Origin: Thermodesulfobacteriota bacterium
Lineage (GTDB): Bacteria; Desulfobacterota; Desulfarculia; JACQYL01
Assembly: GCA_963675595.2 (NCBI GenBank)
Contig: CAXXLZ010000001.1
Location: 96,001-160,000 of the forward strand
DNA: 64,000 bases
Direction of reading: 5' to 3'
The notes under the pieces were generated by a model. The model did no database searches. It was given only the letters and a program-made list of their open reading frames with translations, and was not told the origin of the DNA. A program made the translations under genes and the position numbers. Below are positions 22,587 to 58,688 of this stretch, piece after piece (positions within the stretch are counted from its first letter, which is position 1; each line of letters begins with the position of its first letter).

Positions 22587-22598
22587 TTTCAGAAACCT

Positions 22599-23873: not shown

Positions 23874-23887
23874 GTTCCGCAGTTAAG

Positions 23888-23940
23888 GAGTATCCGGAGA
23901 AACCTTTTGAGAAAGGTTCCCGGGACCCCTTGTAAAACTT
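23888..23940. repeat. REP-like palindromic repeat, uninterrupted copy
   Basis: TCCGGAGAAACCTTTTGAGAAAGGTTCCCGGGACCCCTTGTAAAACTT. Confidence 0.65.
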
Positions 23941-24052
23941 GTCGAACGGGCTGCTCGCTTCCGCTTCGCAACCGGTTTCGGATCACGGGACATTTCGTCC
24001 GATCTTTCAACCCTCCCGTGGAATCTCTCCCAATTCGAGCCACTGCATCCCT

Positions 24053-24079
24053 GTAGGGGCGGACCACCGTGTCCGCCCT
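24053..24079 (+). repeat. GTAG-type REP palindrome
   Basis: GTAG-GGGCGGAC-caccgt-GTCCGCCC. Confidence 0.5.
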
Positions 24080-27270: not shown

Positions 27271-27762
27271 ATGATGAGGCACAGAGAGAAAGAGAATCCG
27301 GATGAGGGAATCGTGGTAACGGAGGGAGTCCGTAGGACGACCGGAGTTACCACGATCGGGAAGCACGTCACGGTCCCCGACCCGGAGGTTCCAGAGAAGA
27401 AGCCTCGTCGCAGATTTACAGCCCGGTACAAGCTGAGAATCCTGGAGGAAGCCGATGCGTGTACTGAACCGGGCCGGCTCGGGGCTCTACTTCGGCGAGA
27501 AGGCCTGTATTCTTCGAGTCTGGCGACATGGCGTAGACAACGTGACCAGGGGCAGTTGAGGGCGCTTGGGCCAAAGAAGCGAGGCCGGAAGCCCAAGCAG
27601 AAGAACCCTATGGCAGAGCGGGTGGCCCGGCTTGAAAGGGAGAACCGCCGTCTCGAGAATCAACTGAAACAGGCGCGAACCATCATCGAAGTTCAAAAAA
27701 AAATCTCGGAGATACTGGGGATCGCTCAGCCGGACCTGGACGACGACGGGAGCAGTTCATGA
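27271..27762 (+). CDS. IS3-family OrfA
   Basis: RRRFTARYKLRIL HTH plus coiled coil; A-run near 27695-27703 is a candidate frameshift site. Confidence 0.85.
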   Translation: MMRHREKENPDEGIVVTEGVRRTTGVTTIGKHVTVPDPEVPEKKPRRRFTARYKLRILEEADACTEPGRLGALLRREGLYSSSLATWRRQRDQGQLRALGPKKRGRKPKQKNPMAERVARLERENRRLENQLKQARTIIEVQKKISEILGIAQPDLDDDGSSS

Positions 27763-28754
27763 GCGCGGCGATGGAGCTGCGCACCGAGGTGGGAACCGTG
27801 CAGGCATGTGGAGCCATGGGCCTGCCCCGTGCGAGTTTCTATCGCCGCCTGAAGCCGGCGGCGGCCCGCACACCTCGGCCGGCGCCTCCCTTGGCTCTGA
27901 ACCCCCAGGAGCGGGAAACCGTGGTCGATCTGCTTAACAGCTCCCGTTTTCAGGATGATGCTCCCCGTCAGGTCTTTGCCGTCTTGCTCGATGAAGGACA
28001 GTACTACTGCTCTATCCGGACCATGTACCGGATTCTCAAAGCGGAATCCGGTGATGTCAAAGAGCGAAGAAAGCAGGCGCGGCGGCCTGTCTATAAAAAG
28101 CCCGAGTTGCTTGCGACCGGACCCAACAAAGTGTGGTCCTGGGATATTACGAAGCTAAAAGGGCCTGTGAAGTGGACCTATTTCCATCTTTACGTGATCA
28201 TGGACATCTTCAGCCGCTACGTGGTCGGCTGGATGGTGGCCCATCGGGAAAGCGCCGCTTTGGCCAGGCAACTCATCGAAGAGACGTGCTTCAAGCAGGA
28301 TATCAAGTCCGGCCAACTCATCATCCATGCGGATCGAGGCCCGGCGATGAAAGCGAAGTCCGTAGCCGAGTTCATGGGAGACCTTGGAGTGACCAAGACC
28401 CACAGCCGACCCTATGTCAGCAATGATAACCCCTACTCGGAGGCGCAGTTTAAAACCCTCAAGTATTGCCCGAAATTCCCGAAACGGTTTGGATCAATCC
28501 AGGATGCCCGGTCTTTCTGCCGGGAGTTCTTCTCCTGGTACAACCCCGAGCATCGGCATTCAGGCATCGGGTTGGTCACACCCGAACAGCTCCATTACGG
28601 ACTCGCCCAGGACATTGTAGCGTGTCGCAGCCAAGTTCTTCGGGCTGCCTTCCGGAGCAACCCCAACCGTTTCAAAGGAAAGGTGCCACAGCCGCCAAAA
28701 TTGCCCAAGGCCGCGTGGATCAACAAACCGTCGAGCGATGACGTGAGAGTCTAA
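27759..28754 (+). CDS. IS3-family OrfB (integrase-core DDE)
   Basis: WSWDIT, DIFSRYVVGW, HADRG, DNPYSEAQFKTLK. Confidence 0.9.
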   Translation: MSAAMELRTEVGTVQACGAMGLPRASFYRRLKPAAARTPRPAPPLALNPQERETVVDLLNSSRFQDDAPRQVFAVLLDEGQYYCSIRTMYRILKAESGDVKERRKQARRPVYKKPELLATGPNKVWSWDITKLKGPVKWTYFHLYVIMDIFSRYVVGWMVAHRESAALARQLIEETCFKQDIKSGQLIIHADRGPAMKAKSVAEFMGDLGVTKTHSRPYVSNDNPYSEAQFKTLKYCPKFPKRFGSIQDARSFCREFFSWYNPEHRHSGIGLVTPEQLHYGLAQDIVACRSQVLRAAFRSNPNRFKGKVPQPPKLPKAAWINKPSSDDVRV

Positions 28755-30203
28755 TTTCTGAAAACAGGTGTCTCATTTTCATTGACACATTCCGTACAGA
28801 GAAATTAAGCATAAAATTACAAAAGAAATATATTTAGACAAACATACAATTTTACCAAAAATTGAGGGGGTCACTGAGTCTTATATTGGATATCTCCCTG
28901 TCCATGAATTTCTAAAGTTAGTTACTGACGAAGACGAGGAATTACTAAAAAGTGTTTTTTACGACAATGTGCGTGACTTCCAAGGTTTTAACTATGTAAA
29001 TAAGGAAATTAAAAACTCAGTTGAAAACACACAGTTAAATGACAAGTTTGTGCTTTTGAATAATGGAATAACAGTTGTAGCAAAAAGCGTCAACAAAGTT
29101 GGGACGGCATTTAAAGTAAACGATTTTCAAATTGTAAACGGATGTCAAACAAGCCATGTGTTGTATTACCTTAGAGAGAAGGTATCTGAAAGTTTGCAAA
29201 TACCGCTTAAATTGATTGTCACAGATAATCCAGATGTAACAAATAACATTATCAAGGCAACAAATCAACAAACAGAAGTCAAAAAAGAAGCTTTTGAAAT
29301 ACTATCACCATTCCATAAAAAAATCGAAGAGTTTTATTTGGCTTTTGAAAAGGAAGACAATAAGCGAATTTATTATGAAAGACGTTCAAAGCAATACGAC
29401 AATTCTAAAATTAATAGGATGTATATTATCACACTATCAACACAAATTTCGTCCTTTATTGCAATGTTTCTTAACGAGCCGCATAGTACGAAAAGGTATT
29501 TTGGCGAGCTGTTGCGGGCCTACAAAAATAGACTTTTTCAGGAAGATCACTCACCTTACCCATATTACACATCAGGGTTAGCATTCTATGTATTAGAAAC
29601 CTTTTATCGTGATAGAATTTTAGATCAGAAATTTAAACAGTTTAAACACCATCTATTAATGCTATTCAGGATAAAAGTCACAGGTGAAAAAATGCCACCT
29701 TTTTCAAGCAAGAAAATAGAAAGTTATTGTAATGAGCTTCTTAATATCCTATGGGATCGTAACAAAGCAAAAATGATATTCATTGAATTAGAAGGTGTAC
29801 TAACAAATACGTTTAACAAGTCAAAACTATTGAAACGACAAGCGCATGTTCTCCGATCATTCACAGAAGAATTAATACCTTCCTTGAAGTCTTGCAAGAA
29901 GATTGGGTCTGTTATTTATTATAATGATCTAAAAGGGTATGGATTTATCAGAATTGATGACGACCAAGATGATATATTTGTCCATGTATCTGAAGTCGAG
30001 CGTTCACTAAATCGCTCACATTTAAAAAATGGAGAAAAAATTAAATTCAGTATAATTGATACATACAAAGGGCCGCAGGCTAAGGAATTAGAAACATAAT
30101 AAATGTGTTAAAAAATAGGATAAGCACCCATTGTAGCTTATAATTCGGTTTCTAATATCAATGATAATAATGCAAGAAGCCTTAACTTAGGTCGATCGTA
30201 ATT

Positions 30204-30455
30204 TTGGAGCTGGTAAATATGAGAAAAAATGTATTTGTTTACATTTCGTCTGGAATTATTTTATTAATAGTTTTCATTATTACTGTTATCCCAACAATTA
30301 TTGGTGGATCGGAATTTCTTTATAATGAGGGATCTCTGAGAATATTATATGCAGCAATTAGTTTAGCGGTAGCAATGATTACATTTGGGGTCTTGGGCGA
30401 TTCCGGCGCATTGGTTAAATTCCAGCGACAAAAAGGAACTTTGACGAGTTCGTAA
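30204..30455 (+). pseudogene. Low-GC membrane protein fragment, probably truncated at ~30440 by a mobile-element end
   Basis: Two hydrophobic helices; frame ends just after TTGACGAGTTCGTAAAAA. Confidence 0.45.
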
Positions 30456-30751
30456 AAACCCCTTAACGAATTTATATAGCTGAAAACATAAGTAAAAATG
30501 GTATTTAAGGGTCGACTTCCTTCTTGGGCCTTGTATAATAAGCATCTGACAGGAGTTTAAGAGTTACCTGAGCAGAATAGTCTATAAGGGCTGTAAAAGC
30601 GGTAAGTTACGTTCTGAAAGTTTGTAAGACCCCACCGTCGTTCATCTGGAAACCGAAGGCGTGCAGGATTTGGGCCTGGATGTCGTTCGGTTGTTCGATC
30701 ATGCGGAGGGGTTTTCGTTTTGCCGGACTGAAGCAGAGGCAGGAGTGGAGT
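30440..30751 (-). mobile_element. 3' remnant of a transposase (IS1634-like C-terminus) cut by the adjacent IS3
   Basis: Minus-strand tail ..RMIEQPNDIQAQILHAFG..* stops at 30607 and begins abruptly at the IS3 boundary; family is inference. Confidence 0.45.
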
Positions 30752-30825
30752 TGGAATGCCCCCCGATAATTGGTCCATGTATAATGAGAGTCTGAATGCC
30801 CAAAGAACGGAAGGAGACTTTTTGC

Positions 30826-31107
30826 ATGGCCAAGAGAAAGAGACACAGCGCGGAGCAAATCATCCGGAAACTTGAAGACGCGGACCGTCGTCTGACGGCA
30901 GGGCAGACGATAGCGCAGGTTTGCCAATCGCTGGAGGTGAGCGAGGCGACGTACCACCGGTGGCGAAACCAGTATGGGGGGATGAAGGCTGAGGAGGCCA
31001 AACGGCTAAAAGAACTGGAAAAGGAAAATGCACGCTTAAAAAAGCTGGTCGCCGATCTGATGTTGGACAAGGCAATGCTGAAGGATCTTGCGGAGGGAAA
31101 CTTCTAA
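30826..31107 (+). CDS. IS407-group OrfA
   Basis: KRHSAEQIIRKL..SEATYHRWRNQYGGM..RLKELEKENARLKKLVA. Confidence 0.9.
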   Translation: MAKRKRHSAEQIIRKLEDADRRLTAGQTIAQVCQSLEVSEATYHRWRNQYGGMKAEEAKRLKELEKENARLKKLVADLMLDKAMLKDLAEGNF

Positions 31108-32006
31108 GCCCGGCGCGTCGTAGGAAAGCGGTTGATTATGTTCGAAGTGAACATGCCGCTTCAGAGCGTCGGGCCTGCCGCGTAGCCGGTCAACACCGAT
31201 CCACCCAACGTTATGAGCCGAAGGAACGGGACGATGAGGTGGAACTGATCAAGGCTCTTCACCGGTTGGTTGGAGAACATCCCCGTTTTGGATGCCGTAG
31301 GATCACTCGGCTGCTGCGTGATGCGGGGTGGGCGGTAAACTACAAGCGAATTCATAGACTTTGGAAAGAGGAAGGATTCAAGGTACCTCGAAAAGCCAAG
31401 AAGAAACGCTTCCTGGGAGTTGATGCCAATGCGTGCAACAAGCGTAAGGCGGCTTTTGCAAATGATGTCTGGACGTTGGATTTCATTCATGACCGCTTGG
31501 TCGACGGCCGTCAGTTCAAGTGCTTGGCCATTGTCGACGAGTTTACTCGGGAAAACCTGGCCCTGAGGATCAACCGCTCCATTACGGGTGAAGACGTTTT
31601 GAACGAGCTGAGCCGATTGATGGGCGAGCGGGGAGTTCCAACGGGCATTCGATCGGATAACGGTCCCGAATTTATAGCCCAAAAGGTGAGAAACTGGCTG
31701 AAAGACCTGGGAGTGGGAACCCTTTTCGTCGAGCCGGGAGCCCCTTGGCAGAACGGGTACGTGGAAAGTTTCAACAGCCGTTTTCGGGATGAATTCTTGA
31801 ACATGGAAATTTTCAACAACATCAAGGAAGCGCAGACTCTGGCCGCCAAATGGCGGAAAGCCTATAACGAGGAAAGACCGCACAGTGCATTGAATTACAT
31901 GACCCCGGCCCAGTTCGCGGCGAGCCCTTGGGGCCTCGACTCCGCCTCGCTCAGCTCGGCTTCGCCGAGGCCCCAAGGGCCGGGGATGGAAAACCGCGAG
32001 TCATGA
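31104..32006 (+). CDS. IS407-group OrfB (probably expressed by -1 frameshift)
   Basis: WTLDF, IVDEFTRE, RSDNGPEF, PWQNGYVESFN; GGGAAACTTCTAAG frameshift region. Start approximate. Confidence 0.85.
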   Translation, partial: LSPARRRKAVDYVRSEHAASERRACRVAGQHRSTQRYEPKERDDEVELIKALHRLVGEHPRFGCRRITRLLRDAGWAVNYKRIHRLWKEEGFKVPRKAKKKRFLGVDANACNKRKAAFANDVWTLDFIHDRLVDGRQFKCLAIVDEFTRENLALRINRSITGEDVLNELSRLMGERGVPTGIRSDNGPEFIAQKVRNWLKDLGVGTLFVEPGAPWQNGYVESFNSRFRDEFLNMEIFNNIKEAQTLAAKWRKAYNEERPHSALNYMTPAQFAASPWGLDSASLSSASPRPQGPGMENRES

Positions 32007-33850: not shown

Positions 33851-34693
33851 CTATTCCGCGTCGGCGAGCACCACGCTGTGCACGGCCATGACGGCCACGC
33901 CCAGGGCGAGGGGTTCGTGAATCAGGCGGTCGCCGAGCAAAGCTTCGGCTTTGGGCGTGAGACCGTGGGGCACGCCTGGGGAAGCCACGATGGTGGTGGA
34001 TCGCACCATGGTTTCGGCTAGAATGCCGGCGGCCGGGGTGGCGTCCAGAATGTAGTTTATGGTTCGGCAGGCCTCCGATAGGTCGTCTACCGGAGTCGCC
34101 CGGGGCCAGGCTTTGATGAAGTCCACCAGCCGAGCCTGGTTGACTTCGCGTACATAAACTTTTGCGCCCAACCGGATCAGCGCGTCCACGGCATAGGTTC
34201 CCACGGGTCCTAAGCCCAATACCAACACTTCCTTGCCGGCGATGCCGTCTTCCCGGAGGTTCACGGCTCCGGCCAAGGCCTGGACGAAACCGTGGGCCGT
34301 GGCCCACGCGTTGTCCACGGTACGCTTCATGGGCATGTTCACGGCCAAGAACCGGTAATCGTCGGACGCGAAAAGCACGTCGGCGCGGCTTTCAATCGCT
34401 TCGGCAAATCCTCCCACGTCCATTTGTCCCATGATCTCGGGCCGCATGTCCAGGTGCCTGAGCACGGCGCATATGGCCTCGGCGAAACCGGGGATCACTC
34501 CTTGGCCGGAAGACATGGTAATGACCGCGGCGGAGGATTTCCTGAGGAGGTCTTTGACGCGGGTCAACGGAGCATTCACGGTACGGGCGGCGATGCCCAG
34601 GAGGTCGAAGCCGGTTCTTCTCTTCAGGTCCCCGTCCAGGGCGTTGAGGGAAACGGGAATGTCTTTGATCAAGTCGTGGTATAGGCGGGTCAC
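33851..34693 (-). CDS. pylD: Pyrrolysine synthase (3-methylornithyl-N6-L-lysine dehydrogenase) homolog
   Basis: MTRL..TG.DL.GIA, GQGVIPGFA, DVGGFAEA, ASDD.RFLA, DN..ATA.GFV, Rossmann GLGPVG, SPGVPHG, IHEPLALGVAVM. Confidence 0.88.
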   Translation of the reverse strand: MTRLYHDLIKDIPVSLNALDGDLKRRTGFDLLGIAARTVNAPLTRVKDLLRKSSAAVITMSSGQGVIPGFAEAICAVLRHLDMRPEIMGQMDVGGFAEAIESRADVLFASDDYRFLAVNMPMKRTVDNAWATAHGFVQALAGAVNLREDGIAGKEVLVLGLGPVGTYAVDALIRLGAKVYVREVNQARLVDFIKAWPRATPVDDLSEACRTINYILDATPAAGILAETMVRSTTIVASPGVPHGLTPKAEALLGDRLIHEPLALGVAVMAVHSVVLADAE

Positions 34694-34704
34694 AAGGGAT
34701 TCTC

Positions 34705-35853
34705 CTATTCGTCCGGAGGGGACGGGTCCAGAAGGGTTTCACACCGGAATGCTTCGAGCAGGTTCTGAATCGCCCGGTCTCTCTTTTTCCGAGCGAGGTC
34801 TTCGGTATCTTCCACGATGACGGCCGTGGCCTCCCAGGCGAGAGGATTCCTCTGACAATTGGAGATGAACTCGTGGAAGCCAAAGGCGTTGGACATCACG
34901 GCCAAATGCCCCGCGTTTGCCAGGATGTGCTCTCCGGACACCTCGATGGTCTTGTCGCGCTGGCGAAGATGTTCGTAGATCACGGCCTTGCCGCGGGTCC
35001 CTGCGGGCAGGGGATCGGGCGGACGGCCCGACGTCCAATATCGGGCCAGGAGTTCGACCATGTTGATACCGGTGGAATGGAACACCGCGGTGGGGGTCTG
35101 GCTCGGAAGCCGGGCGTCGATTTCAAGGACCTTAAGGCCGTCATCCGGAGACATGACTTCGATGTCCATGATGCCGGAGAGATTCAGTGCCGAAGCGATT
35201 CGCTCGCCCAACCGTCGGAATTCGGCTTCCACTTCCCTGCCGGTGGCGGGTCCTGCCAAGACCCTTTTGCAGTCGTAGACCGCGTCGAATTCCAGTTCGG
35301 TGACCTGGAACCCAACCGCGCGTCCCCGATGCGCCATGACTTCCAGGGAAAAGGAAGGCCCTCCCACAAATTGCTGGATGACCACTTCCTTCCCCAGTTC
35401 GGCAAGCGCTCGGTTCAGGGTTTCCTCGTTGAAAACTCTGCTCACGCCGGTGCTGCCGCTGGATCCGGAAGGCTTGACGATCACCGGAAACCCGCACTGA
35501 GGCCAGGGGTCGGGGGTGGGAATCTCGGCGGACGCGAACAACTCGTTGGATCGAAGTTTGGACGAAGTGACCCGGTAGGACGCAAGGTCCAGGGCCAGGG
35601 GGACTCCCAGCCGGCGGGCCGTTTCATCCAGGTAGGTCAGGGTCTCGATGTTTTCCGTGGCCGGAAGAATGCAATCAAAGGATGGGAGCACGCCTTCGAG
35701 GTCTTGCACGGCGGAATGGAGGAATCGGTCGGCAACTCCGCGTGCCGGAGGTTCGACATCCCGGTCCACCACCGTGGTTTCAAATCCCGCCTTGCGAGCC
35801 AGATACGCCGCCTCCAGGCCCTGGAGTCGGCCGCCGACGATGCAGAGTTTCAT
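34705..35853 (-). CDS. pylC: 3-methylornithine--L-lysine ligase (ATP-grasp) homolog
   Basis: IVGGRLQGLEAAYLARKAG, PATEN, SSKLRS, VKPSGSSGSTGV, YDCKRV, GIMDIEV, LEIDARLPSQTPTAV, VSGEHI. Confidence 0.9.
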   Translation of the reverse strand: MKLCIVGGRLQGLEAAYLARKAGFETTVVDRDVEPPARGVADRFLHSAVQDLEGVLPSFDCILPATENIETLTYLDETARRLGVPLALDLASYRVTSSKLRSNELFASAEIPTPDPWPQCGFPVIVKPSGSSGSTGVSRVFNEETLNRALAELGKEVVIQQFVGGPSFSLEVMAHRGRAVGFQVTELEFDAVYDCKRVLAGPATGREVEAEFRRLGERIASALNLSGIMDIEVMSPDDGLKVLEIDARLPSQTPTAVFHSTGINMVELLARYWTSGRPPDPLPAGTRGKAVIYEHLRQRDKTIEVSGEHILANAGHLAVMSNAFGFHEFISNCQRNPLAWEATAVIVEDTEDLARKKRDRAIQNLLEAFRCETLLDPSPPDE

Positions 35854-37621: not shown

Positions 37622-39922
37622 TCAGGTCGTCAGCCGTTTGTACATGGCGGGCAGCACCGTGGGCAACTGCTCCGCTTTGGGAACGATAATGCTTTGAGTT
37701 TGAGGACAGATGAGTTTCATGTACTCGGAGCCTTTTTGGTCCGAGGTGATGATGAAGGGATGGATTCGGTGTCGTCGGGCTTCTCTGAGGGCTCTGTGGG
37801 TATCGGCCACGGCATAGCTCAAGGTGCCGTATTCCAGATCGTACGGGCGTCCGTCGGTCAGGATGACCATCAGCTTGATGAGAGCGGGCACTGCGTTGAG
37901 CTTGTAGATACCGTGTCGGATCGCGGTGCCCAGGCGGGTGAAATGCTTGGGCTCGAGATTCCCGAGACGGTATTGGGCCTTTTCCCCGTAAGGCTCACCG
38001 AAATCCTTCACCGTGAACAGGTCCACTCGGTAACGACCTTCCGAGGTGAAGCCGAAAATGGCGAAGGGGTCTCCCACCGAATCCAGCGCTTCCGCCATCA
38101 GGACCATGGCTTCTTTCTGCAGATCGATGACCCTTCGTCCGCCCACCATTTCTTCGGTGGAACCGCTCATGTCCACGAGAAACAGAACGGCCACATCCCG
38201 GGATCGTTTGTCCCGCCGGATGTACACGCTGTCCGTTAAAGGTCCGCCGGCTTTCATCTCGACAATGGCCGGAATCAGGGCTTCCCAGTCGAGATCGTCG
38301 CCGAACTCCTGGGCGCGAAGCTTTCGGAACTGTTCGGGCTTCAAGCGGAGAAACTGTCTTCGAATCAGGTTGATCAGTCCGTGAAGACGGTTCCTCACGT
38401 CCGCGGCAAACGCGTTGGGTTCGTCCTTGGCCATACGTTGCCGCACCAGACACCAGTCGAGCTTGTAGTCCGAAAGACCGGTGTCCCATTCCTTGTACAT
38501 GAAGGTCTTGAAGGATTCTTCGAGCTCTTCGGCTTCCGGTGAAAGGAATTCAAGGTTGTCGAAAGCCTCTTGAAGGTCGTCCCAAATCCCTTTGAAATCA
38601 CGCTTGCCCTCGGCCATCATGAAGGTGAGCAGAGCTTCCACCACGGCCGGCGGCAGATCGTACTTCTCCTCGGCCTTCATGAGGACTTTTTGAATCAGAC
38701 CGTCGGTGTCTTTGACGAGATGGGGAAGGAGGTCCCCCCACCACGGCATGGGGCGAATGATTTCAGTCTCCGGATCGTCCGAGTATCCTTCCGGCAGGTC
38801 GGGCTCGGCCAGACGCTTCATTTCGGCGAGGAGGGCGGGGAGTTTTTTCAGAAGCCGCTGGTCCGCCTCCACATGCGTCCGGGTGGGGTGGACCCTTCGA
38901 GACATATCCCGCCAGTCCATGGCTTCGAGCAAAGCGGCCTGGTGCAGTGCCATGAGCTTGAACAATCCCAACCGGGGAACCACCTCGGGGAGAAAAATGG
39001 TGCGTCCGTCCGTGGCGGGCCCTCCGGTGAAGCCCTGGACTCCAATGAGGGAGTTGTTGGATCGGATTTTCACCCGCCGTCCGAGGTAGGCCTCGCACAT
39101 GAGGGACAGCATGTTCGCTCGATCCTGGAGCACGATTCCGGAGGTCAAGCTGTCGCGTTTTTCCAGGGACTTGAAGGTCGTGCCGCTGAAGTAGCCCACC
39201 AGTTCTTCTTCCGAGCGGCTGTCCTCGAGTCCCTGATCGACCCAATTGACGGTTTCGGAATCGTTCAGAAGCAGGCAAACACGTGTTCCCAGGCGAATAA
39301 AGGCTTCGGCCGCGGAAGCGGCGCGCAGGGAAATCCTCTCCGCCTGGTCCAGAAGGAAATTCCAATGTTCAAGAGGGGTCGCGCACTGATCGGATACCGC
39401 CTCTTCGAGATAGGCCTTGACGGCCCGGCCCATGCGGCGGCCCGCCTTCAAGGCTTCGATGGCCAGTTCGCCCCAGAGCATCACGTGTTCCGGCCCGAAA
39501 CTTCTGACCGCGGCCGGCGTGTGTTTAAGGAACGCGGAAGCGCATTCCACGTCGGAGTCGGCCATCCGGACGGCGAACAGGGTCCATTCTTCGATGGCGA
39601 CCTCAGTGGAGGATACGGCGCTCACGCTTTCAAAGTAAGACGAGGTCATGGTCCAATTTCGGACCGCGAGACGTTTGGCTCCCCTGAGAATCAGCGGGGT
39701 TGAGGGGTTGCCCCTCAGATTTTCGATGTTGTGGAAAGTACTGATAAAAAAGTTGGTCGCCATGCGGGACCTGAGATGGGCGATGGAGCCGCAGATTCTC
39801 AGATAGGCGTCATGGGTACCGTTGGGCAAACGCTGCAGGATGTCCGGATGGGACCTGAGGAATTCCGTCAGGGAACTCATGCGGACGCGGGAATAAGTTC
39901 GACAGGGAGAGAGAATATCCAT
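37622..39922 (-). CDS. NorD/CbbO-type VWA-domain protein
   Basis: PATDGRTIFLP, YKEWD..DY, MIDAS VDMSGST, TRLGTAIRH, LTDGRPYD. Confidence 0.88.
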   Translation of the reverse strand: MDILSPCRTYSRVRMSSLTEFLRSHPDILQRLPNGTHDAYLRICGSIAHLRSRMATNFFISTFHNIENLRGNPSTPLILRGAKRLAVRNWTMTSSYFESVSAVSSTEVAIEEWTLFAVRMADSDVECASAFLKHTPAAVRSFGPEHVMLWGELAIEALKAGRRMGRAVKAYLEEAVSDQCATPLEHWNFLLDQAERISLRAASAAEAFIRLGTRVCLLLNDSETVNWVDQGLEDSRSEEELVGYFSGTTFKSLEKRDSLTSGIVLQDRANMLSLMCEAYLGRRVKIRSNNSLIGVQGFTGGPATDGRTIFLPEVVPRLGLFKLMALHQAALLEAMDWRDMSRRVHPTRTHVEADQRLLKKLPALLAEMKRLAEPDLPEGYSDDPETEIIRPMPWWGDLLPHLVKDTDGLIQKVLMKAEEKYDLPPAVVEALLTFMMAEGKRDFKGIWDDLQEAFDNLEFLSPEAEELEESFKTFMYKEWDTGLSDYKLDWCLVRQRMAKDEPNAFAADVRNRLHGLINLIRRQFLRLKPEQFRKLRAQEFGDDLDWEALIPAIVEMKAGGPLTDSVYIRRDKRSRDVAVLFLVDMSGSTEEMVGGRRVIDLQKEAMVLMAEALDSVGDPFAIFGFTSEGRYRVDLFTVKDFGEPYGEKAQYRLGNLEPKHFTRLGTAIRHGIYKLNAVPALIKLMVILTDGRPYDLEYGTLSYAVADTHRALREARRHRIHPFIITSDQKGSEYMKLICPQTQSIIVPKAEQLPTVLPAMYKRLTT

Positions 39923-39930: not shown

Positions 39931-40773
39931 TTAGAAGATGCCGCCGACGATTTCGGAAATCGCTTCCTGCATTTCGGGATCGTCGGTCATACAGCGGGTG
40001 ATGGCGGCTTCACAAGCAACGGCCGGAGCGAGGCCGCGGGCCATGAGTTTTCCCGCGTAGACCAGCAGGCGCGTACTGACCCCTTCCTCGAGACCGTGTT
40101 GCCGCAGGTTGCGCACCATGTCGCCCAATCGAACGAGACGCGCGGCGGTTTCTTCGTCCACGCCGGATTCCTTGCGGACGATTTCCTGTTCCTTTTCCGC
40201 CGGCGGATAGCTGAATTCCAATGCCACGAATCGTTGACGTGTTGAATGCTTCAAATCCTTCATCACGCTCTGGTACCCCGGATTATAGGAGATGACCAGA
40301 AGGAAATCAGGATGGGCTTCCAACAGCCGCCCGCGCTTCTCCTGGGGCAGGATCCTCCGATCGTCGGTCAAGGGGTGAATCACCACCGTGGTGTCTTTGC
40401 GGGCTTCCACCACTTCGTCGAGATAACAGATGGCTCCGTTCTTCACCGCCAGGCTCAAGGGTCCGTCCGTCCACTCGGTCTCTTGCTTCTTCAGGAGAAA
40501 CCGGCCCACCAAGTCCGAGGCGGTCAAATCCTCATGGCAGGATATGGTGACCAGAGGGCGGGAGAGCCTCCAAGCCATGTGTTCCAGAAATCGAGTCTTT
40601 CCGCACCCGGTCGGCCCCTTGAGCATAACGGGCAACTTGATGTCATAGGCCTGTTGGAACACCTCCAACTCATCTCCAATGGGGAGGTAGAACGGTTCTT
40701 TGGGCAGATAGTAATGCTCGATGGCCACCTCGTGCGAGGCCTTCAGGGGTCGTGATGTACCGGTCTGCTGCAC
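39931..40773 (-). CDS. CbbQ/NirQ/NorQ (MoxR) AAA+ ATPase
   Basis: [57 protein letters not shown]. Confidence 0.93.
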
Positions 40774-40982: not shown

Positions 40983-42023
40983 TTAGTATTTGCCGTAAAG
41001 CTCCGCGGCCTCCATCATGGCGATGGCGTTCATGATGGAACCGTTGGGCGGATACTCACACCCGGTGGCGAGGATGAAACCGCCGCCTTTGCCCAGTTCC
41101 TCGATCTCGCGCTTGCATTCCTCCCTCATGTCCGCGGGGGAACCAAGAAACGCGTACTGAGCCGGATTGACATAGCCGCAAAGGCAGGTCTTGTCCCCCC
41201 ATTTTTCTTTGGTTTCCTTCATGTCCTTACAGTCGTCCGGCGTGTAGGCGAAGGAAATGGCCACGGGCTGCATGGTTTCTATCTGCACGTCGAAATAGAT
41301 GCCGTTGCCGCAGTTGTGAACCATGACCATGGCGCCTCCCTCGCGAACCGCGTCGGCGATCCGCTTGGCGAAGGGGCCTTCGATTTCTTTCCAAAGTTCC
41401 TTCTTCATGATGCACTGGGAAGCAAACAGGGTATCCAGCACCACGGCATGCACCCCGGTCTTGGTCATGGCCTTGATATAGTCCACCAACACGTCGGTGA
41501 TTACTTCTTCCGCGTGCATCACCGCTTCCTTGTTCTTCATGCAGTCCCGGAAGAGACGTTCCGCGCCTCGCATCATGGAGAGAATTCCCAAAGGGCCGTA
41601 AACGAATCCCATGATGGGCACGGTGGCGCCGCGTTCGTTCATGAGAACGTCGCAGTATTTGACCATTTCATTCATTCGGGGGGCCTTGGCCACATCGATG
41701 CGTTCCACTTTGTAATAGTCGTCGGGAGACTTGATCAGAGGATTGTCGTAGTTGGGATGCGGGGTGTCTTCGATGGGGAACACCACTTCCTGGCCCAGGT
41801 CCGCCGCCTCCACGGACAGGTCCACAAGGGTGAGCACGCCGTCGAAGCCGATGAGTTCCTGTGCCTGAAGCATGCACTTCGCGGCCAGCTCTCCGTCCTG
41901 TGCCCATTCGGCGTAGGTGACTCCGTAGACTCGCCTGGAGGCTCCGCAAACGAGGGGAGCCGCGGGTACGCGATCCGCTTCCTTGAACTGAAGGGCTGTG
42001 GCCACGCGTTCCAAAGATGTCAT
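40983..42023 (-). CDS. UroD/MtaA-CmuA family (methylcobamide:thiol methyltransferase-like) protein
   Basis: MTSLERV..DRVP, VEAADLG, GFVYGP, Zn-type HNC (MVHNCG) and GFILATGCEYP. Confidence 0.82.
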   Translation of the reverse strand: MTSLERVATALQFKEADRVPAAPLVCGASRRVYGVTYAEWAQDGELAAKCMLQAQELIGFDGVLTLVDLSVEAADLGQEVVFPIEDTPHPNYDNPLIKSPDDYYKVERIDVAKAPRMNEMVKYCDVLMNERGATVPIMGFVYGPLGILSMMRGAERLFRDCMKNKEAVMHAEEVITDVLVDYIKAMTKTGVHAVVLDTLFASQCIMKKELWKEIEGPFAKRIADAVREGGAMVMVHNCGNGIYFDVQIETMQPVAISFAYTPDDCKDMKETKEKWGDKTCLCGYVNPAQYAFLGSPADMREECKREIEELGKGGGFILATGCEYPPNGSIMNAIAMMEAAELYGKY

Positions 42024-42343: not shown

Positions 42344-42931
42344 TTACCGGATTCGGTCGAGGATCGTATCGATACCTCGACCGTTTTTGAGGCTTAAAGG
42401 AATGACTCCCGAAACCACCGGATCTAAAATCTTCGAAATCCTGTGGAGACCGGACTCATCCAGTGTTTCCGAATGACTGAGGGCCACCAGATCGGCGCCG
42501 TCGATCTGGCCGGTAAGCAGCAGACGCTTCTCCAACCAGTGTTTGTCGAAATCCGCACCGTTCACCAGAGTGATGAACGTCCCGGTTTCGTATTTCACGT
42601 CCCGTCGAGCCATGGCACAGACCATCTGCAATTCTCGAGTCACCACCAGGCCCGACGGTTCGACAAAGATGTAGCCGAACTCCCCGGTTCTGACAATCTC
42701 CTTAAGGCGAACCGCAAAACTGGACGCCAGTGAACAGCCCAGTCATCCGCCCCGAAGACGCTCCATGTAAACCGCGTGGTCGTCGACGAAACTCTGATCG
42801 TAAGCTTGCTCGCCCTCTTCGTTGACGATGACCGCGGACCGGGATCCCTCCCCGTGCAGTCGGGAAATTAATTCCCTGATCAAAGTCGTTTTTCCGCTTC
42901 CCGTAACGCCGGATATGGGGATCACCTTCAT
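42344..42931 (-). CDS. Selenocysteine-containing CobW/G3E-family GTPase (Sec at codon 63)
   Basis: ORF-track fragments 42743-42931 and 42344-42646 are in one frame: GVTGSGKTT..VNEEG..RGG-U-LGCS..FVEPSG; TGA at 42745-42743 aligns with the first Cys of GGCICC in the neighbouring paralog. Confidence 0.88.
42709..42742 (-). promoter_or_regulatory. Candidate bacterial SECIS element
   Basis: After UGA: CU-GGGCUGU-UC-ACUGG-CGU-CCAGU-UUU-GCGGUUC; apical loop starts 16 nt after UGA and has G at position 2 followed by U. Confidence 0.7.
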
Positions 42932-43449
42932 GGTTCGGGGTCCGCCTCCTGTTCCGTATCCTTGAACTGCTCTTCCAGTTGTTTGATGAAATCCTGTTTT
43001 GAGGCGGTGAAATCGAATTCGTCGAAGTAGGTGTGTTCCTTTTCCTTGTCCACGGTGAGGCCTCTACCTTCGGCGATCTCGTGGATTCCTTCCAGAGTGG
43101 CCGCTTTCACTTCCTCTTCACGGATACCCTGTACGATGCTGTTCACGGCCATATACAGCTCCGCCACCGGATGGGAGAGGTGTCCGGAAGAATACGCGCC
43201 GTGGGAGACTCCGATGGTATCCGCCTTCATGGTTCCGGCTTCACTCATGATGTGCGATTTGATGTGCCCGATGCAGCGGGCGCCCCGGGCCATACATTTG
43301 TTCGCGATGGAAAGCATCATGGTTTCAGCCAGATTCTTTATCTGGGTCTCATCCAGAGGGGTGGGATGACTCACTTTCACCGCGACACCGTACCCACTCA
43401 CTCCGTGTTCGGTATAACAGCCCTTTTCCGCCGTCAAGGGGTCCGTCAT
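42928..43449 (-). CDS. Hypothetical protein, CobW C-terminal-like (IGHIK motif)
   Basis: 173 aa, GARCIGHIKSH; stop overlaps start of the Sec GTPase (ATGA). Confidence 0.7.
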   Translation of the reverse strand: MTDPLTAEKGCYTEHGVSGYGVAVKVSHPTPLDETQIKNLAETMMLSIANKCMARGARCIGHIKSHIMSEAGTMKADTIGVSHGAYSSGHLSHPVAELYMAVNSIVQGIREEEVKAATLEGIHEIAEGRGLTVDKEKEHTYFDEFDFTASKQDFIKQLEEQFKDTEQEADPEP

Positions 43450-43453: not shown

Positions 43454-44068
43454 TTACTCCTTCCATGTCATGATGAGCTCTTTGACCCGATCCACTCCTT
43501 CACCGGAAAACGTGGACAAACGAAGGAGCTCCGCATCGGGATTGAGTTCTTTGATCTTGCTTTCCGTACCGTCCAAAGTGCCCGGGTCCACAGCGTCCAC
43601 TTTGCTTACGGCAACGACATTGGCGTCTTTGACCTGCGTAGTGACGAGTTGGCCCAGGGCGTCCATATCCAACAGCTCGGCCGGTCGGGTGGCGTCGAAT
43701 AGAACAATGGCCGGTCCGAGGGCGATCTTGGCGTCGCGTCCCCCCATCCTTGCGGCCAACTTGACCTGATGAGGAACGGCCACCCCGGTGGGTTCCACCA
43801 GCACGTGGTCGGGGTTGAATTCCCGGTAAAGGGCGTAAATCGTCTTGGCGAACGTGGCGGCGACTTCGCAGCAGATGCATCCTCCTCCGATATCCTTAAC
43901 TCGGAGTCCGGTTTCTTCGATGATTTTTCCGTCAACGGGAATCTCTCCGATTTCGTTGACCACAAGCGCGACTTTCTGTTCTCCGTGTCCGGCCAATTCC
44001 CTGGAAAGCCTCAGCAGCAAAGTGGTCTTTCCACAACCCAAGAATCCTGCGATCTGCGTGATTTTCAT
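43454..44068 (-). CDS. CobW/HypB/UreG (G3E) GTPase, nucleotide-binding domain only
   Basis: AGFLGCGKTT, VVNEIG, GGGCICC, VEPTG, SKVD; start placed at ATG 44068. Confidence 0.9.
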   Translation of the reverse strand: MKITQIAGFLGCGKTTLLLRLSRELAGHGEQKVALVVNEIGEIPVDGKIIEETGLRVKDIGGGCICCEVAATFAKTIYALYREFNPDHVLVEPTGVAVPHQVKLAARMGGRDAKIALGPAIVLFDATRPAELLDMDALGQLVTTQVKDANVVAVSKVDAVDPGTLDGTESKIKELNPDAELLRLSTFSGEGVDRVKELIMTWKE

Positions 44069-44500
44069 GGACCATCCCTTCTCGACGCGTGCAAACGAAT
44101 CCCCATTCGCGGACCAATCCGCCAATCTCGTTGGAGAACAGTGAACGTCGGCGTTACAGATGAAAGATGGAAACACGGGTGCGCCGGGCATCGTGCGTAG
44201 CCCGGATCGGAATTACTGGGTGGGTTCCGGTATGAAGAACCTGATGTCTGGTCAAGCTGCAAGATCAACCCTGCTCGAATAACCTGCATGAGGGACTGCG
44301 CTGTGTGACCTTCGATTTCCGGTGAACCGAGGTGAGAACACCGTCGGATAGCGGGTACTTCCCGCCCTCCGGAAAACCGGAATTTTCCAATGAGCTTACG
44401 GCGGCGCCTTTCAGCTATCCGGTACTCGAGGTGAAATCGGCGCCGTACGTTTGATTCCTGTACCTCCCAACGTCTATTGGAATCTTGTATAGACCTTATA

Positions 44501-44529
44501 AGAATAAGTACTGCAACCGGCATTGTCAA
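44501..44529 (-). promoter_or_regulatory. Candidate sigma-70 promoter upstream of the cobW-like operon
   Basis: Minus strand TTGACA-17 nt-TATTCT in an AT-rich patch. Confidence 0.5.
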
Positions 44530-44744
44530 TGAGATCACACTTCCCCAACAGACCGTTGAAAGAAACCGGTTGCTGCGGGCCGCCGAGTCATGGACGGATC
44601 GCCGGGGCGGGCGGGGAGGACCGTTTACAGACGGCCCTCGCAGGGCATCGTTCGTTGTTTCTTCCCAAAGGGTCGAGGAGCACACGGTGTAGTCGCTCCC
44701 CGACCTTGGCGGGCGACCGGATTCAATCGGCCGGGAGTTCGACG

Positions 44745-55149: not shown

Positions 55150-56697
55150 ATGAAGATTCAGTCCATGACAGACTTGCGCAGGTGGAAATGGTTTCTTGGG
55201 GTATCGGCAATAGTGATATTTTCTTTCTGTTTGAACGGCACGGTTTTGGCCATGGAGCCCAAAAAGGGCGGAACCCTGATTTTCGGGGTAGAAGAGGAAT
55301 TTGCGGGTTTCGACGCCTTGAAAGCGCGGGGTTTTGCCATTTGTGATGCGATCGCAAACTCAGTCATCCAGGAACGGCTTTTTGAGATAAACGACAAGGG
55401 AGAACTGATTCCGATTCTGGGATTGTCGGCGACTCCTTCATCAGACCGGAAAACCTGGACGATCGCTCTTCGAAAGGGGGTCTTTTTTCATGACGGCACA
55501 CCGTTCACCGCCGACGCCGTGGTGGCGCACTGGGAGCGGCTCCTGGATCCGAAAAATCGATTCGGCGGCCGGGATACGATTGCCCCGATTCAGTCCGTGG
55601 AAAAAGTGGACGATTTTGCCGTTCGCTTTGTCCTGGCTCACCCCTGGCTTCCTTTTTTAGCCACGCTTTCCGACGGAAGGACTCTGGCCCCCTGCATTCC
55701 CTCGCCCAAGGCGGTTGCCGAGGATCTGCAGAACCGAGCGCCTGTGGGAACCGGCCCTTACATGTTCAAAGAATGGGTGTCCGGAGACTGTTTTGTCGTC
55801 GCGCGCAACCCTCATTACTGGAAACAAGGGCTACCCTATCTGGATGAAATCATTTTTAAACCGATGCCCGACAGCCAGACCCGATATGCAAGCCTCGAGA
55901 CCGGCCAGATGGATATGATCTGGACCGACCGGGGCGCCGCCATTGAAAAAGCTGAAAAGGATCCCGCACTGGTTCACTATGTCAGTGAGGGAAACGGGGC
56001 TGAAATATTCATCCTCAACACAGCCAAACCGCCCCTGGATGATGTCCGGGTCCGCAGGGCCCTGGCCTATGCTTGGGATCAGCAGGTTTGTGTAAAGCTT
56101 AGTTATGAGGACGGCATCCCCTTGGTTAAGACGCCGTTCGGGGTCGGAATGGATTGCGGTGAGGCAGGATACCCTGCTCACAACCTGGAAATTGCCAGGG
56201 AGCTGGTCGCCGATTACGGCAAGCCCGTGGAAATCGAATGCCTTCACTCCAACACCAAAAGAGGTCAAGAGCAGGGAGAACTACTGCAGCAGTTTGCGAA
56301 AAAAATCGGGGTGACTATCAAACCGATAGGGATGAGTTTTGGGCCTGTGGTGAAAAAGGTGGTGACCAGGGACTACCAGATTTCGACATGGAGAATTCCC
56401 GCCCTGTGCGATCAAGGCGCGAATCTTTTTTCGGCCCTCCACAGCAAGAGCCGGAGAAACTGGTCTGGAATTAATGACTCCGATCTGGACAGCCTTGTAC
56501 TTGCCCAGAACAGCTCGACCGACCCGAAAGAAAGAAGTGCCCTTCTGTGCAAAATTGCCGAGAAGATCAACGAGGATGTGCCGTTTATCTATCGAGGGGG
56601 GCGTCGGTTTCATGTCCTGTCCAAGAAAGAGGTCAAGGGAAGGGTCAGGTTTCAGAACGGGATCTTTGAGCTATCGGACCTCTGGCTGGACCGGTAG
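55150..56697 (+). CDS. ABC transporter substrate-binding protein (family 5, Dpp/Opp-like)
   Basis: PKKGGTL, LRKGVFFHDGTPFTA, PVGTGPY, DVRVRRAL. Confidence 0.9.
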   Translation: MKIQSMTDLRRWKWFLGVSAIVIFSFCLNGTVLAMEPKKGGTLIFGVEEEFAGFDALKARGFAICDAIANSVIQERLFEINDKGELIPILGLSATPSSDRKTWTIALRKGVFFHDGTPFTADAVVAHWERLLDPKNRFGGRDTIAPIQSVEKVDDFAVRFVLAHPWLPFLATLSDGRTLAPCIPSPKAVAEDLQNRAPVGTGPYMFKEWVSGDCFVVARNPHYWKQGLPYLDEIIFKPMPDSQTRYASLETGQMDMIWTDRGAAIEKAEKDPALVHYVSEGNGAEIFILNTAKPPLDDVRVRRALAYAWDQQVCVKLSYEDGIPLVKTPFGVGMDCGEAGYPAHNLEIARELVADYGKPVEIECLHSNTKRGQEQGELLQQFAKKIGVTIKPIGMSFGPVVKKVVTRDYQISTWRIPALCDQGANLFSALHSKSRRNWSGINDSDLDSLVLAQNSSTDPKERSALLCKIAEKINEDVPFIYRGGRRFHVLSKKEVKGRVRFQNGIFELSDLWLDR

Positions 56698-56803
56698 GCG
56701 GATATTTCCGTTAACAATGCAGAGAGAGGTCTTTGATTCCGCCGTGGATACATTCCGAATAGAGCCTGAATAAAAAGGCGTTACGATTGGGCCGGGAAAG
56801 TGA

Positions 56804-57757
56804 GTGCGACGAATGGGGAAAAAAGCCCTGCACCTTGTCTTGGTGGTTTTAGTGGTGTCGGCAATCACCTTTTTGGTGGTGGATGTGCTCCCCGGCGATA
56901 TTGCTTTCCGGATCGCCGGCGAAACGGCAACCCTCGAGGACATTCAGGCGATCCGGGAAGAACTCGGACTCGAACGCAATCCTTTCCTCCGGTACGTGAG
57001 TTGGGTTGCCGATGTGTGTCAGGGCGACCTTGGCATCTCCCACCTCACCCACGAACCGGTACTGACTGCGATCGTCGCCCGACTTCCCGTGACCGTCGAA
57101 CTGATGGTTTCGGCCCAAATGATCGCCCTGGTTCTGTCGGTGCCTGCAGGGATTTACGGAGGATACAGGCCAAGGTCATTTCTCGACCGTTTTCTGGGGT
57201 CCACCGGTTTTGCCCTTATGTCGATGCCGGGGTTTGTGATGGCCCTGGTTTTGATCTATCTCTTCGCCATAAAGGTCGGATGGTTCCCGGCCACCGGTTT
57301 TGTGCCCCTGTCCGCCGGCCCCCTGGACAACCTGCGATCGATTTTGCTCCCGGCCATGAGCCTTGCCCTCATTGAGTGGGTGCCGCTCATGCGGGTGCTC
57401 AGAAACGACATGATAGCGACTCTACGGGAAGATTTCATCCTCATGGCCCGGTCCAAGGGGCTGCCGCCCCGCTCCATTTTATTCCGGCATGCGCTTCGCC
57501 CCTCTTTGTTCACGCTGGTTACCCTGTTGGGCATACAGATCGGCCATCTGATCGGCGGAGCAGTGATCGTGGAGACCATCTTTGCTTTGCCGGGAATCGG
57601 CCGTTTGCTGATCGGAGCCATTTTCAACCGTGATTTTATGGTTGTTCAGGGATGCGTTCTTTTCATCACGGTCGGTTACGTGATGGTCAACTTCCTTGTC
57701 GATATCTCCTACACCGTTCTTGACCCCCGGCTTCGGAGGGAGGGGCACGGTGACTGA
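56804..57757 (+). CDS. ABC transporter permease (DppB-like)
   Basis: LPGD, GDLG, ARSKGL, HALR, VETIFALPGIG. Confidence 0.9.
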   Translation: MRRMGKKALHLVLVVLVVSAITFLVVDVLPGDIAFRIAGETATLEDIQAIREELGLERNPFLRYVSWVADVCQGDLGISHLTHEPVLTAIVARLPVTVELMVSAQMIALVLSVPAGIYGGYRPRSFLDRFLGSTGFALMSMPGFVMALVLIYLFAIKVGWFPATGFVPLSAGPLDNLRSILLPAMSLALIEWVPLMRVLRNDMIATLREDFILMARSKGLPPRSILFRHALRPSLFTLVTLLGIQIGHLIGGAVIVETIFALPGIGRLLIGAIFNRDFMVVQGCVLFITVGYVMVNFLVDISYTVLDPRLRREGHGD

Positions 57758-58688
57758 ATTCAGCCGTGGCTCGATGACTTCCAGGGTCCGCTGCTCCCGC
57801 GTTACCGGGTCGAGATCTTTTTCAAAAGCTCTTGGCGAGTCTTTCCGGCTTTCCGTTTTATGGCTCGCCTGTGTCCTGTTTTTTGCTGTCACAGCCAATT
57901 TCTGGCCCCTTCCCGAATATGACCACATGGACTGGAAGAACCCTGCGGCCCCACCGGGGACCGAAAGCTCTTCCCCGGAGCAGAGCGTCGAAGGGGTGGC
58001 GGGGAAAAAATGGGTCCACATCCTGGGAACCGATACCATGGGGAGAGACATCTTTTCGCGCATCGTTTTCGGTGCCCGGGTTTCCCTGGCCGTCGGATTG
58101 ATAACCCCTTGCATCGGGTTGGCGATCGGCGGAATTTTGGGCATGCTGGCCGGATTTTACAGGGGGCGGGTGGAGTCATTGATTGTGGCGATCATGGACG
58201 CCGTATTGGCATTCCCGGGCCTGGTGCTTCTGTTGGTAATCACATTTGCCTTGGGAGCCGGCCTTTCGAACATGATCCTGGCATTGGGGATTCTGACCAT
58301 TCCAGGTTTTACCAGAGTTGCTCGCGCCAACACTCTCAAGGTCGGCGTATTGGAATTTGTCCAGAGCGCCCGAATGCAAGGGCAACGCGATTTCGACATC
58401 TTGCTGAGAGAAATTCTACCCAATGTAATTTGGCCTTTAGTCGTCTATGCGCTGCTGGTGGTGTCTTATATGATTATTGCAGAGGGGGCCCTTAGCTTTC
58501 TCGGTTTGGGGGTTCCCGCACCGACCCCGAGCTGGGGCGGAATGATTGCCGAGGGAAGAGAGATTCTCGACAGGGCGCCGCATGTCAGCTTGATTCCGGC
58601 CCTTGTCATGTTTCTCACGGTCCTTTCCTTCAACATCATGGGAGATTCTTTGAGGCGGGTGATTGATCCGAAAGAGGAGCAATGGTGA
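57750..58688 (+). CDS. ABC transporter permease (DppC-like)
   Basis: HILGTDTMGRDIFSR..GARVSL, LSFLGLG, PSWGGMI. Confidence 0.9.
   Translation: MTEFSRGSMTSRVRCSRVTGSRSFSKALGESFRLSVLWLACVLFFAVTANFWPLPEYDHMDWKNPAAPPGTESSSPEQSVEGVAGKKWVHILGTDTMGRDIFSRIVFGARVSLAVGLITPCIGLAIGGILGMLAGFYRGRVESLIVAIMDAVLAFPGLVLLLVITFALGAGLSNMILALGILTIPGFTRVARANTLKVGVLEFVQSARMQGQRDFDILLREILPNVIWPLVVYALLVVSYMIIAEGALSFLGLGVPAPTPSWGGMIAEGREILDRAPHVSLIPALVMFLTVLSFNIMGDSLRRVIDPKEEQW

Follow-up and report, generated by a model that had tools for sequence, protein, structure and literature searches.

A very probably recoded UGA codon in a CobW-related G3E-fold protein encoded within a conserved six-gene cassette

Analysis of a 64,000-nucleotide stretch of a Thermodesulfobacteriota genome (contig CAXXLZ010000001.1, positions 96,001 to 160,000; hereafter, the window) revealed, on the minus strand, a gene for a small CobW-related protein whose reading frame contains a TGA codon. 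As judged from the sequence, this in-frame TGA very probably encodes selenocysteine (Sec) in a small CobW-like metal-handling NTPase. The protein carrying this residue has a predicted G3E fold and belongs to a selenoprotein family that is already curated, and the gene is part of a conserved cassette. Taken as a whole, the observations are best explained by an intact gene in which UGA codon 63 is decoded as Sec and whose product would be a selenium-bearing partner in a metal-handling cassette, an explanation that we consider highly likely. An earlier note on this DNA had described the gene as a CobW/G3E selenoprotein in which UGA stands for the first Cys of the metal-binding motif. The observation was confirmed, and this core reading is supported by the analysis presented here.

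The UGA codon at position 63

The gene and the codon in question are as follows.

42344..42931, minus strand: CobW-related selenoprotein gene, 195 codons plus TAA stop (sequence, translation, Pfam, and NCBIfam)
42743..42745, minus strand: in-frame TGA, codon 63, taken as Sec (conserved TGA, Cys homologues, and YjiA alignment)

The list of open reading frames (ORFs) and their translations placed a 62-amino-acid ORF (42743..42931) and a 100-amino-acid ORF (42344..42646) of the minus strand in a single shared frame. Translation of the minus strand from 42931 to 42344 with TGA read as U gave 195 residues with a sole U at codon 63, in agreement with the claim that the frame is interrupted by the TGA at 42745-42743 only. 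The product reads ...YMERLRGG-U-LGCSLASSFAV...IFVEPSGLV...LVALSHSETL... and carries the motifs GVTGSGKT (G1), U63-L-G-C66, EPSG, and SHSE.

A scan of public contigs with one genome per species yielded 13 orthologous loci (L001 to L013), all from Desulfobacterota-type metagenome-assembled genomes, and one distant CobW. TGA was found at the aligned codon in all 13 orthologues, inside the motif GG-U-[LV]-GC-SL, and the frame continued beyond it. Mean pairwise identity over 91 pairs was 0.525 for residues 1 to 62 and 0.527 for those that follow; the two parts are conserved to the same degree, and there is no decay after the TGA.

Homologues with Cys at this position were also detected. The word-indexed protein search revealed two full-length Cys relatives, P0002 (GGCVGCSL) and P0003 (GGCVGCTL), together with 47 matches of 108 to 139 amino acids that span the C-terminal part only. 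Seven of the ten fragments whose sequence was inspected begin exactly one codon past the Sec position (M/V-GCSL...), and fragment P0052 ends with ...YLRGG. An exhaustive profile search (E ≤ 1e-30) returned 12 representatives. Ten are fragments beginning at profile position 64 or later, and the other two are the full-length Cys forms P0003 and P0063 (the latter with GGCIGCTL). On the evidence of these alignments, the conserved TGA and the Cys forms constitute the classical signature of a Sec/Cys pair. The homologue search that the earlier note had proposed therefore came out in favour of its reading, with TGA conserved at 13 of 13 loci and Cys forms in existence, and the signs that it had named as contrary evidence did not appear: the frame does not decay downstream, the aligned residue is Cys, and the TGA recurs in 13 independent contigs.

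These results bear on three explanations that do not involve Sec. The locus might be a pseudogene or a split gene, the TGA being a true stop after a 62-amino-acid P-loop fragment, possibly accompanied by a separately initiated C-terminal piece. Ordinary gene callers do yield such fragments, among them the 47 C-terminal-only matches, and TGA is the stop codon used most often in the window. This explanation is very improbable in view of a TGA kept in every orthologue, a frame that is open and equally conserved on both sides, and homologues with Cys at the TGA position. Furthermore, in the window the TGA is followed directly by CTG, and no in-frame start occurs before codon 96, 33 codons further on; a restart there would drop 32 conserved residues, which argues against it. 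A sequencing or assembly error, conceivable for a single window without read data, is effectively refuted by the 13 independently assembled public contigs bearing the same codon.

The third explanation, read-through by means other than Sec insertion (a code in which UGA is reassigned to Trp or Gly, or near-cognate suppression), is hardly to be expected either. It would accord with the fact that selA is the only gene of the Sec machinery visible in the window. However, TGA terminates 18 of the 39 confident window genes, among them two from the same operon, unk173 and the VWA gene (both described below), and is also the terminal stop in 7 of the 13 orthologues. The use of TGA as an ordinary stop indicates that the genetic code is standard and that the UGA at codon 63 is recoded by context. 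Moreover, the residue aligned in homologues is Cys, neither Trp nor Gly.

Family membership and predicted fold

The read-through product scored 251 bits against NF041053 ("CobW-related selenoprotein"), an equivalog-type curated NCBIfam model with a cutoff of 180 bits, and residues 1 to 194 aligned with profile positions 1 to 194 of 195. The Cys forms P0002, P0003, and P0063 scored 290, 245, and 218 bits, also above the cutoff. Pfam recognized the CobW/HypB/UreG nucleotide-binding domain (PF02492, 6e-26). The family is distinguished by UGA at the first position of U-x-x-C with Cys in homologues, which the window gene displays as U63-L-G-C66, and nothing in the comparison excludes membership. 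With its 195 residues, the product amounts to a stand-alone P-loop NTPase domain of the G3E type and is a member of NF041053.

A UxxC family with one Sec, listed as "Cobalamin synthesis protein CobW-like," is tabulated in two selenoprotein reviews (PMC9312934 and PMC13188914), both of which credit it to Zhang and Gladyshev 2007. The words "CobW," "cobalamin," "COG0523," and "GTPase" are absent from the main text of that paper (PMC1976440), so the credit depends on what the two reviews say; the unnamed single-sequence candidates or the supplements may contain the family. A full-text literature search for NF041053 brought up only the 2026 review, and no experimental characterization of the family was found in the literature read. 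The NF041053 match and the two review tables indicate that the family is already known. It is curated and published; the gene is real, and the family, for which the earlier note had been unable to confirm a previous report, is not new. The same note had expected standard annotation to call the locus a pseudogene. It is indeed truncated by gene callers that take every TGA as a stop, but a pipeline applying NCBIfam models could name the gene.

The AlphaFold2 model of the Sec product had a predicted local distance difference test score (pLDDT) of 91.2 and a predicted template modelling score of 0.89, the lowest-confidence block being residues 61 to 70, which bear the U-x-G-C loop. The best matches of the model in the Protein Data Bank (PDB) were HypB, YjiA, MeaB/MMAA, and UreG, with template modelling (TM) scores of 0.6 to 0.71. 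A G3E fold is thus predicted for the Sec product. Alignment with E. coli YjiA placed U63 on C64, G65 on C66, and C66 on C67 of the CxCC motif, to which high-affinity metal binding is ascribed in COG0523 proteins (PMC11672702). U63 falls on the first Cys of this motif and is matched by Cys in P0002, P0003, and P0063, as expected if UGA replaces a conserved Cys. The middle Cys is replaced by Gly in all 16 aligned family members, so the family motif is U-x-G-C. The paralogue encoded two genes upstream reads GGGCICCEV, VEPTG, and SKVD, as had been reported, whereas the Sec copy has SHSE.

In G3E GTPases, G1 corresponds to the Walker A motif, G3 is of the Glu-type ExxG, and NKxD is the G4 motif that confers guanine specificity. 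The window copy contains G1 (GVTGSGKT) and G3 (VEPSG). Among the 16 family members, G3 reads EPSE in 13 and EPSS in 2, and the Gly of EPSG is kept in the window copy only, which makes this copy unusual within NF041053. The Lys of NKxD is present in none of the 16 (Arg in 13, His in 2, and Gln in 1). The fourth position is Asp in 14 of the 16, whereas the window copy has SHSE, a second respect in which it is unusual. The degenerate G4 remarked on in the earlier note is therefore present but not special to the window copy; the missing Lys makes it a family trait. The altered G3 and G4 motifs suggest that nucleotide handling differs from that of an ordinary CobW.

The Sec product resembles COG0523 proteins (CobW, YjiA, ZigA, and ZNG1) in its G3E G-domain, in the position of the metal-site loop, and in its genomic link to cobalt and B12 genes. 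It differs from them in several respects. COG0523 proteins carry CxCC and comprise about 320 to 400 amino acids with a CobW_C domain, whereas the Sec product carries U-x-G-C, has 195 amino acids, and lacks the G4 Lys; Pfam detected PF02492 only and no CobW_C domain. Its scores are far below the CobW and ZigA equivalog cutoffs (54 bits against the CobW model TIGR02475, cutoff 332), and a C-terminal-type domain of another kind is supplied in the cassette by a separate neighbouring gene. In size and fold, the Sec product is similar to HypB and UreG, two stand-alone nickel chaperones of the G3E type with about 200 amino acids, which were among its best structural matches (TM scores of 0.67 to 0.69 for HypB entries 2wsm and 2hf8 and 0.67 for UreG entries 4hi0 and 5xkt). 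However, the sequence match to HypB is weak (18.7 bits against HypB models with a cutoff of 121; E of 0.19 for a PDB HypB chain), and the cassette showed no hydrogenase or urease genes.

SECIS candidates and the Sec machinery

The features considered here are a gene of the Sec machinery and two candidate RNA structures, the latter in relation to the selenocysteine insertion sequence (SECIS).

14648..16066, plus strand: selA (TIGR00474, 621 bits, cutoff 267.9)
42709..42740, minus strand: candidate SECIS stem-loop, in agreement with four published constraints (weak evidence)
42722..42739, minus strand: family-conserved small hairpin (RNAalifold consensus, columns 13 to 19 with 24 to 30, loop CNCU)

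The selA gene, whose presence in the window had been claimed, was recovered about 27 kb from the selenoprotein gene. Comparison of 17 further TGA-read-through ORF candidates of the window with NCBIfam matched no selenoprotein model; the candidates included one IS3 fragment and one ordinary thioredoxin.

The bacterial SECIS model given in PMC13188914 has an apical loop of 3 to 9 nucleotides (nt), an upper stem of 4 to 16 bp, G in the first two loop positions, a distance of 16 to 37 nt from the UGA, and a minimum free energy of -7.5 kcal/mol or lower. These constraints were applied with our own re-implementation, not with bSECISearch. The stem-loop at 42740..42709 (lower stem GGGCUGU/GCGGUUC, upper stem ACUGG/CCAGU, and apical loop CGU) lies 16 nt past the UGA, has a free energy of -11.1 kcal/mol, and passes; of the 14 family sequences, 8 pass. 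A search of Rfam gave no match in the window at the gathering score and none in 42300-43000 at E ≤ 10.

Comparative folding of the 14-sequence alignment revealed a 7-bp hairpin (columns 13 to 19 with 24 to 30) in which 87.8% of the cells are paired, compared to 16 to 67% when the pairing was slid. Its covariation score was equalled by 5 of 500 shuffles; one pair, 15-28, covaries with five pair types and is a C.U mismatch in the window. A second hairpin (columns 26 to 31 with 35 to 40, loop G-U-C, spacing 22) fits the published model better and has three compensatory pairs; 16 of 500 shuffles equalled its covariation score, and only 3 of its 6 pairs form in the window. Two other candidates were set aside. 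The register of the window-only centroid structure (columns 9 to 18 with 25 to 33) had 74.6% of the cells paired and a covariation score equalled by 245 of 500 shuffles, giving it no comparative support, and the short CUGG/CCAG helix, which is the upper stem of 42740..42709, is conserved but without covariation.

Several observations weigh against the decoding of codon 63 as Sec. The SECIS constraints were also satisfied at 39 of 144 random in-frame sites of window genes, and the 71 nt after the TGA folded no better than shuffled sequences (z = 0.01). The earlier note's claim of a hairpin fitting the bacterial model is therefore borne out in part, on weak evidence. The conserved 7-bp hairpin begins 3 nt past the UGA and has a loop, CNCU, without a leading G; its short spacing and the missing G place it outside the published model. 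The selB, selC, and selD genes were not found within the 64-kb window by tRNA scan, Rfam, or NCBIfam on 52 long ORFs, and the literature read contained no protein-level evidence of Sec insertion for the family. Finally, the selenoprotein is the fastest-evolving member of its cassette, with a column identity of 57% compared to 84% for the CobW-like paralogue and 76% for unk173. The TGA and U-x-G-C are invariant despite this low conservation. The presence of a SECIS element is plausible, and the element may differ between sub-lineages.

Genes between and beyond these loci were recorded as well. Downstream of selA, at a distance of 2 to 8 kb, hemC, a fused uroporphyrinogen-III methyltransferase/synthase gene, and folC were found (18255..23873, plus strand); the long N-terminal extension of the fused ORF, which overlaps an opposite-strand IS110 gene, may be spurious. 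Transposase genes are clustered at 19773..32006; they are of the IS110 and IS701 types and, in two copies, of the IS3 type, an orfA fragment (30661..31107) accompanying one of the two. Amid the transposases, 28969..30099 encodes a 376-amino-acid protein whose C terminus is a cold-shock domain and whose N terminus gave a weak MzaE/AIPR-like match. The Rnf electron-transport genes rnfC, rnfD, rnfG, and rnfE are located at 7530..11020 on the minus strand.

The six-gene cassette and its putative metal-handling role

The selenoprotein gene is the third of six genes on the minus strand. The other five are listed in the order of transcription.

43454..44068, minus strand: canonical short CobW-like paralogue (PF02492, 1e-32; G1 GFLGCGKT, GCICC, VEPTG, SKVD)
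42928..43449, minus strand: unk173, a conserved Cys/His-rich protein of 173 amino acids (no Pfam or NCBIfam family match)
40983..42023, minus strand: MtaA/MtbA-like methyltransferase of the URO-D family (PF01208, 7e-57; MtaA and CmuA models under their cutoffs)
39931..40773, minus strand: MoxR-type AAA+ ATPase, CbbQ/NorQ-like (AAA_5, CbbQ_C)
37622..39922, minus strand: VWA-domain partner of the AAA+ ATPase, 766 amino acids, containing DMSGS (VWA, weak CobT_C match)

The gene order paralogue-unk173-selenoprotein-MtaA-like-AAA+-VWA is kept at all 13 loci as far as the contigs reach. The AAA+ gene is present at 12 loci, the contig of L011 ending before it, and the VWA gene is present at 10, the other three contigs ending before it. 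Identity to the window proteins across the 13 loci is 70 to 82% for the paralogue, 64 to 74% for unk173, 42 to 53% for the selenoprotein, and 72 to 79% for the MtaA-like protein; where complete, the AAA+ and VWA proteins share 75 to 80% and 51 to 61%, respectively. The paralogue ORF is extendable up to 44191, but its 13 orthologues (84% column identity) start at MKITQ. Its NF041053 score, 127 bits, is under the cutoff. At L002 (164-774), the paralogue is broken into two frames near residue 101, which may reflect a frameshift or an assembly indel; the adjacent Sec gene is intact. The MtaA-like protein aligned with M. mazei MtaA (4ay7; E of 5e-14), with matching H-x-C and C positions, which we take to be the zinc ligands of MtaA.

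The TGA stop of unk173 overlaps the selenoprotein start (ATGA). Its 14 orthologues share 76% column identity, and the invariant residues include C11, H15, C52, C59, H62, and H66. Homology to unk173 was detected in the C-terminal half of naturally fused proteins (BLASTP against the C-terminal part of P0071, E of 3e-9). These fusions (P0071, P0073, P0076, P0077, P0083, P0084, P0085, and P0089) comprise 336 to 372 amino acids, with a canonical CobW-like G-domain at the N terminus and a shared IGHIK motif in the unk173-like C-terminal domain. In the five fusions scanned with Pfam (P0071, P0073, P0076, P0083, and P0084), only PF02492 was seen. Thus, unk173 is probably, by homology, a free-standing form of a C-terminal domain that other organisms carry in fusion with CobW-like G-domains, and this domain looks like an undescribed CobW-associated domain. 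The AlphaFold2 model of unk173 (pLDDT of 82) had only three PDB hits at E ≤ 1e-3, all of them YjiA chains with TM scores of 0.27 to 0.29. Identification with the classical CobW_C domain was rejected, with a profile-profile probability of 0.2 against full-length COG0523 and no Pfam CobW_C match in the fusions; a weak fold resemblance to YjiA remains. A search of the ESM Atlas with unk173 returned unnamed clusters only, and complex prediction for the paralogue with unk173 gave a score of 0.01, which is uninformative either way.

Analysis of the flanks by Pfam revealed CbiM and a fused CbiQ-ABC ATPase upstream of the cassette in L001, L009, and L013 and CbiQ-ABC alone in L012. A PAS-LuxR regulator is encoded upstream in L009, L012, and L013, and a cobalamin adenosyltransferase is additionally encoded upstream in L013. 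A cobalamin riboswitch (RF00174, 33.5 bits, cut by the locus end) at L013:1-90 precedes the adenosyltransferase, CbiM, CbiQO, and regulator genes; at the gathering score, none was detected in the other 12 loci or in the window. The downstream genes include DUF2284 in L001, L009, and L013 and DUF1638 in L009 and L012. According to Price et al. (PMC5764234), methionine synthesis through a B12-dependent synthase depends on a DUF1638 protein, which was found to co-occur with a B12 reactivation protein of the RamA-like type; the account given there proposes no specific function for the DUF1638 protein.

In the window, a PAS/sigma-54 activator is encoded on one side of the cassette; on the other side lie a thiolase-like gene and, beyond it, pylC and pylD. 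The latter two genes (TIGR03909, 364 bits, and TIGR03911, 181 bits) lie at 33851..35853 on the minus strand, about 2 kb downstream of the VWA gene; their presence indicates that the organism probably uses both the 21st and the 22nd amino acids. Between the sigma-54 activator gene and the first gene of the cassette lies a 676-nt non-coding stretch without an Rfam match (44069..44744, minus strand). Scanning with a sigma-54 consensus produced 24 matches compared to 26.4 expected, none of them upstream of the cassette, and sigma-70 and terminator scans were near chance. Farther away, a five-gene Nik/Opp-type ABC transporter is encoded on the plus strand (55150..60654); its best NCBIfam models are for nickel and nickel/cobalt, all under their cutoffs, and it could serve as a second system for metal uptake in the vicinity of the cassette.

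In its composition, the cassette resembles CobNST plus CobW and NorQD in that G3E proteins are coupled with a MoxR-type AAA+ ATPase and a VWA protein, and weak CobS (36 bits, cutoff 558) and CobT_C matches were obtained. It differs from CobNST in that no CobN-like subunit was seen, the candidate client being the MtaA-like URO-D-family protein. CobW is described as serving the CobNST chelatase (PMC11672702), and MoxR/VWA pairs are described as driving metal insertion (bioRxiv 10.64898/2026.10.09.757910). By analogy, we infer that the Sec/Cys pair is a soft-metal site and that the Sec protein is a metal-handling partner. In the mechanism proposed here, the Sec machinery of the organism would decode UGA codon 63 as Sec, and the resulting protein would be the selenium-bearing partner beside the paralogue, the detached Cys/His-rich domain, the MtaA-like methyltransferase, and the MoxR AAA+/VWA pair. 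Its selenolate and thiolate would together bind a soft metal and pass it on, and the Sec protein, the paralogue, the detached domain, and the MoxR/VWA motor would metalate a client.

Cobalt would be the leading candidate for the metal because of the CbiM/CbiQO and B12 neighbours, with zinc or nickel possible. Two points count against this assignment. No cobalt transporter is adjacent to the cassette in the window, and the MtaA-like neighbour keeps the zinc-type ligand positions, which makes zinc as plausible a cargo as cobalt.

The main functional rival accepts a genuine selenoprotein and takes U-x-x-C as a redox or chalcogen-transfer centre, not a metal ligand, for example in handling selenide, sulfide, or methyl-selenium for the MtaA-like methyltransferase. 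UxxC is well known as a redox motif, and a 2022 review (PMC9312934) regards most prokaryotic selenoprotein families as probable participants in redox reactions. The metal site lacks its middle Cys, G3 and G4 are degenerate, and thioredoxin and pyridine-nucleotide disulfide oxidoreductase genes lie 3.6 to 5.4 kb away. MtaA homologues in other clusters have been proposed to act on methyl-selenium or methyl-sulfur compounds (PMC10418091); however, those mlp clusters of Kountz and Balskus are a different gene set, and the text on them mentions no GTPase, VWA protein, or ATPase. The fold, the motif position, and the paralogue instead point to a G3E metallochaperone site, as do the MoxR/VWA pair in the cassette and the CbiM/CbiQO importer in related genomes. 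We regard the redox or chalcogen-transfer role as possible though doubtful.

The metal-handling role can be extended to the cassette as a whole. The six genes might encode an undescribed metallocentre-assembly machine, in which the Sec subunit, NTPase-degenerate and with a mixed Se/S site, would receive cobalt (or zinc or nickel) from the CbiM/CbiQO importer and deliver it to a methyltransferase system of the corrinoid type, paralleling CobW-CobNST without CobN. In this full form, the proposal is speculative and rather unlikely to be correct.

Full-text literature searches found no description of the cassette, of the detached domain, or of the family-wide motif changes. What is added here to the known family is the six-gene cassette, the frequent CbiM/CbiQO neighbour, and the family-wide degenerate G3 and G4. 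For annotation, the locus should be called as one selenoprotein gene, neither as a pseudogene nor as two fragments, and among the public protein predictions for its relatives, many are cut short directly past the Sec codon. Sec at the metal site of a G3E chaperone-like protein would be an uncommon use of this amino acid, and the conserved cassette with its cobalt-transporter neighbourhood offers a concrete, testable setting for the role of selenium.

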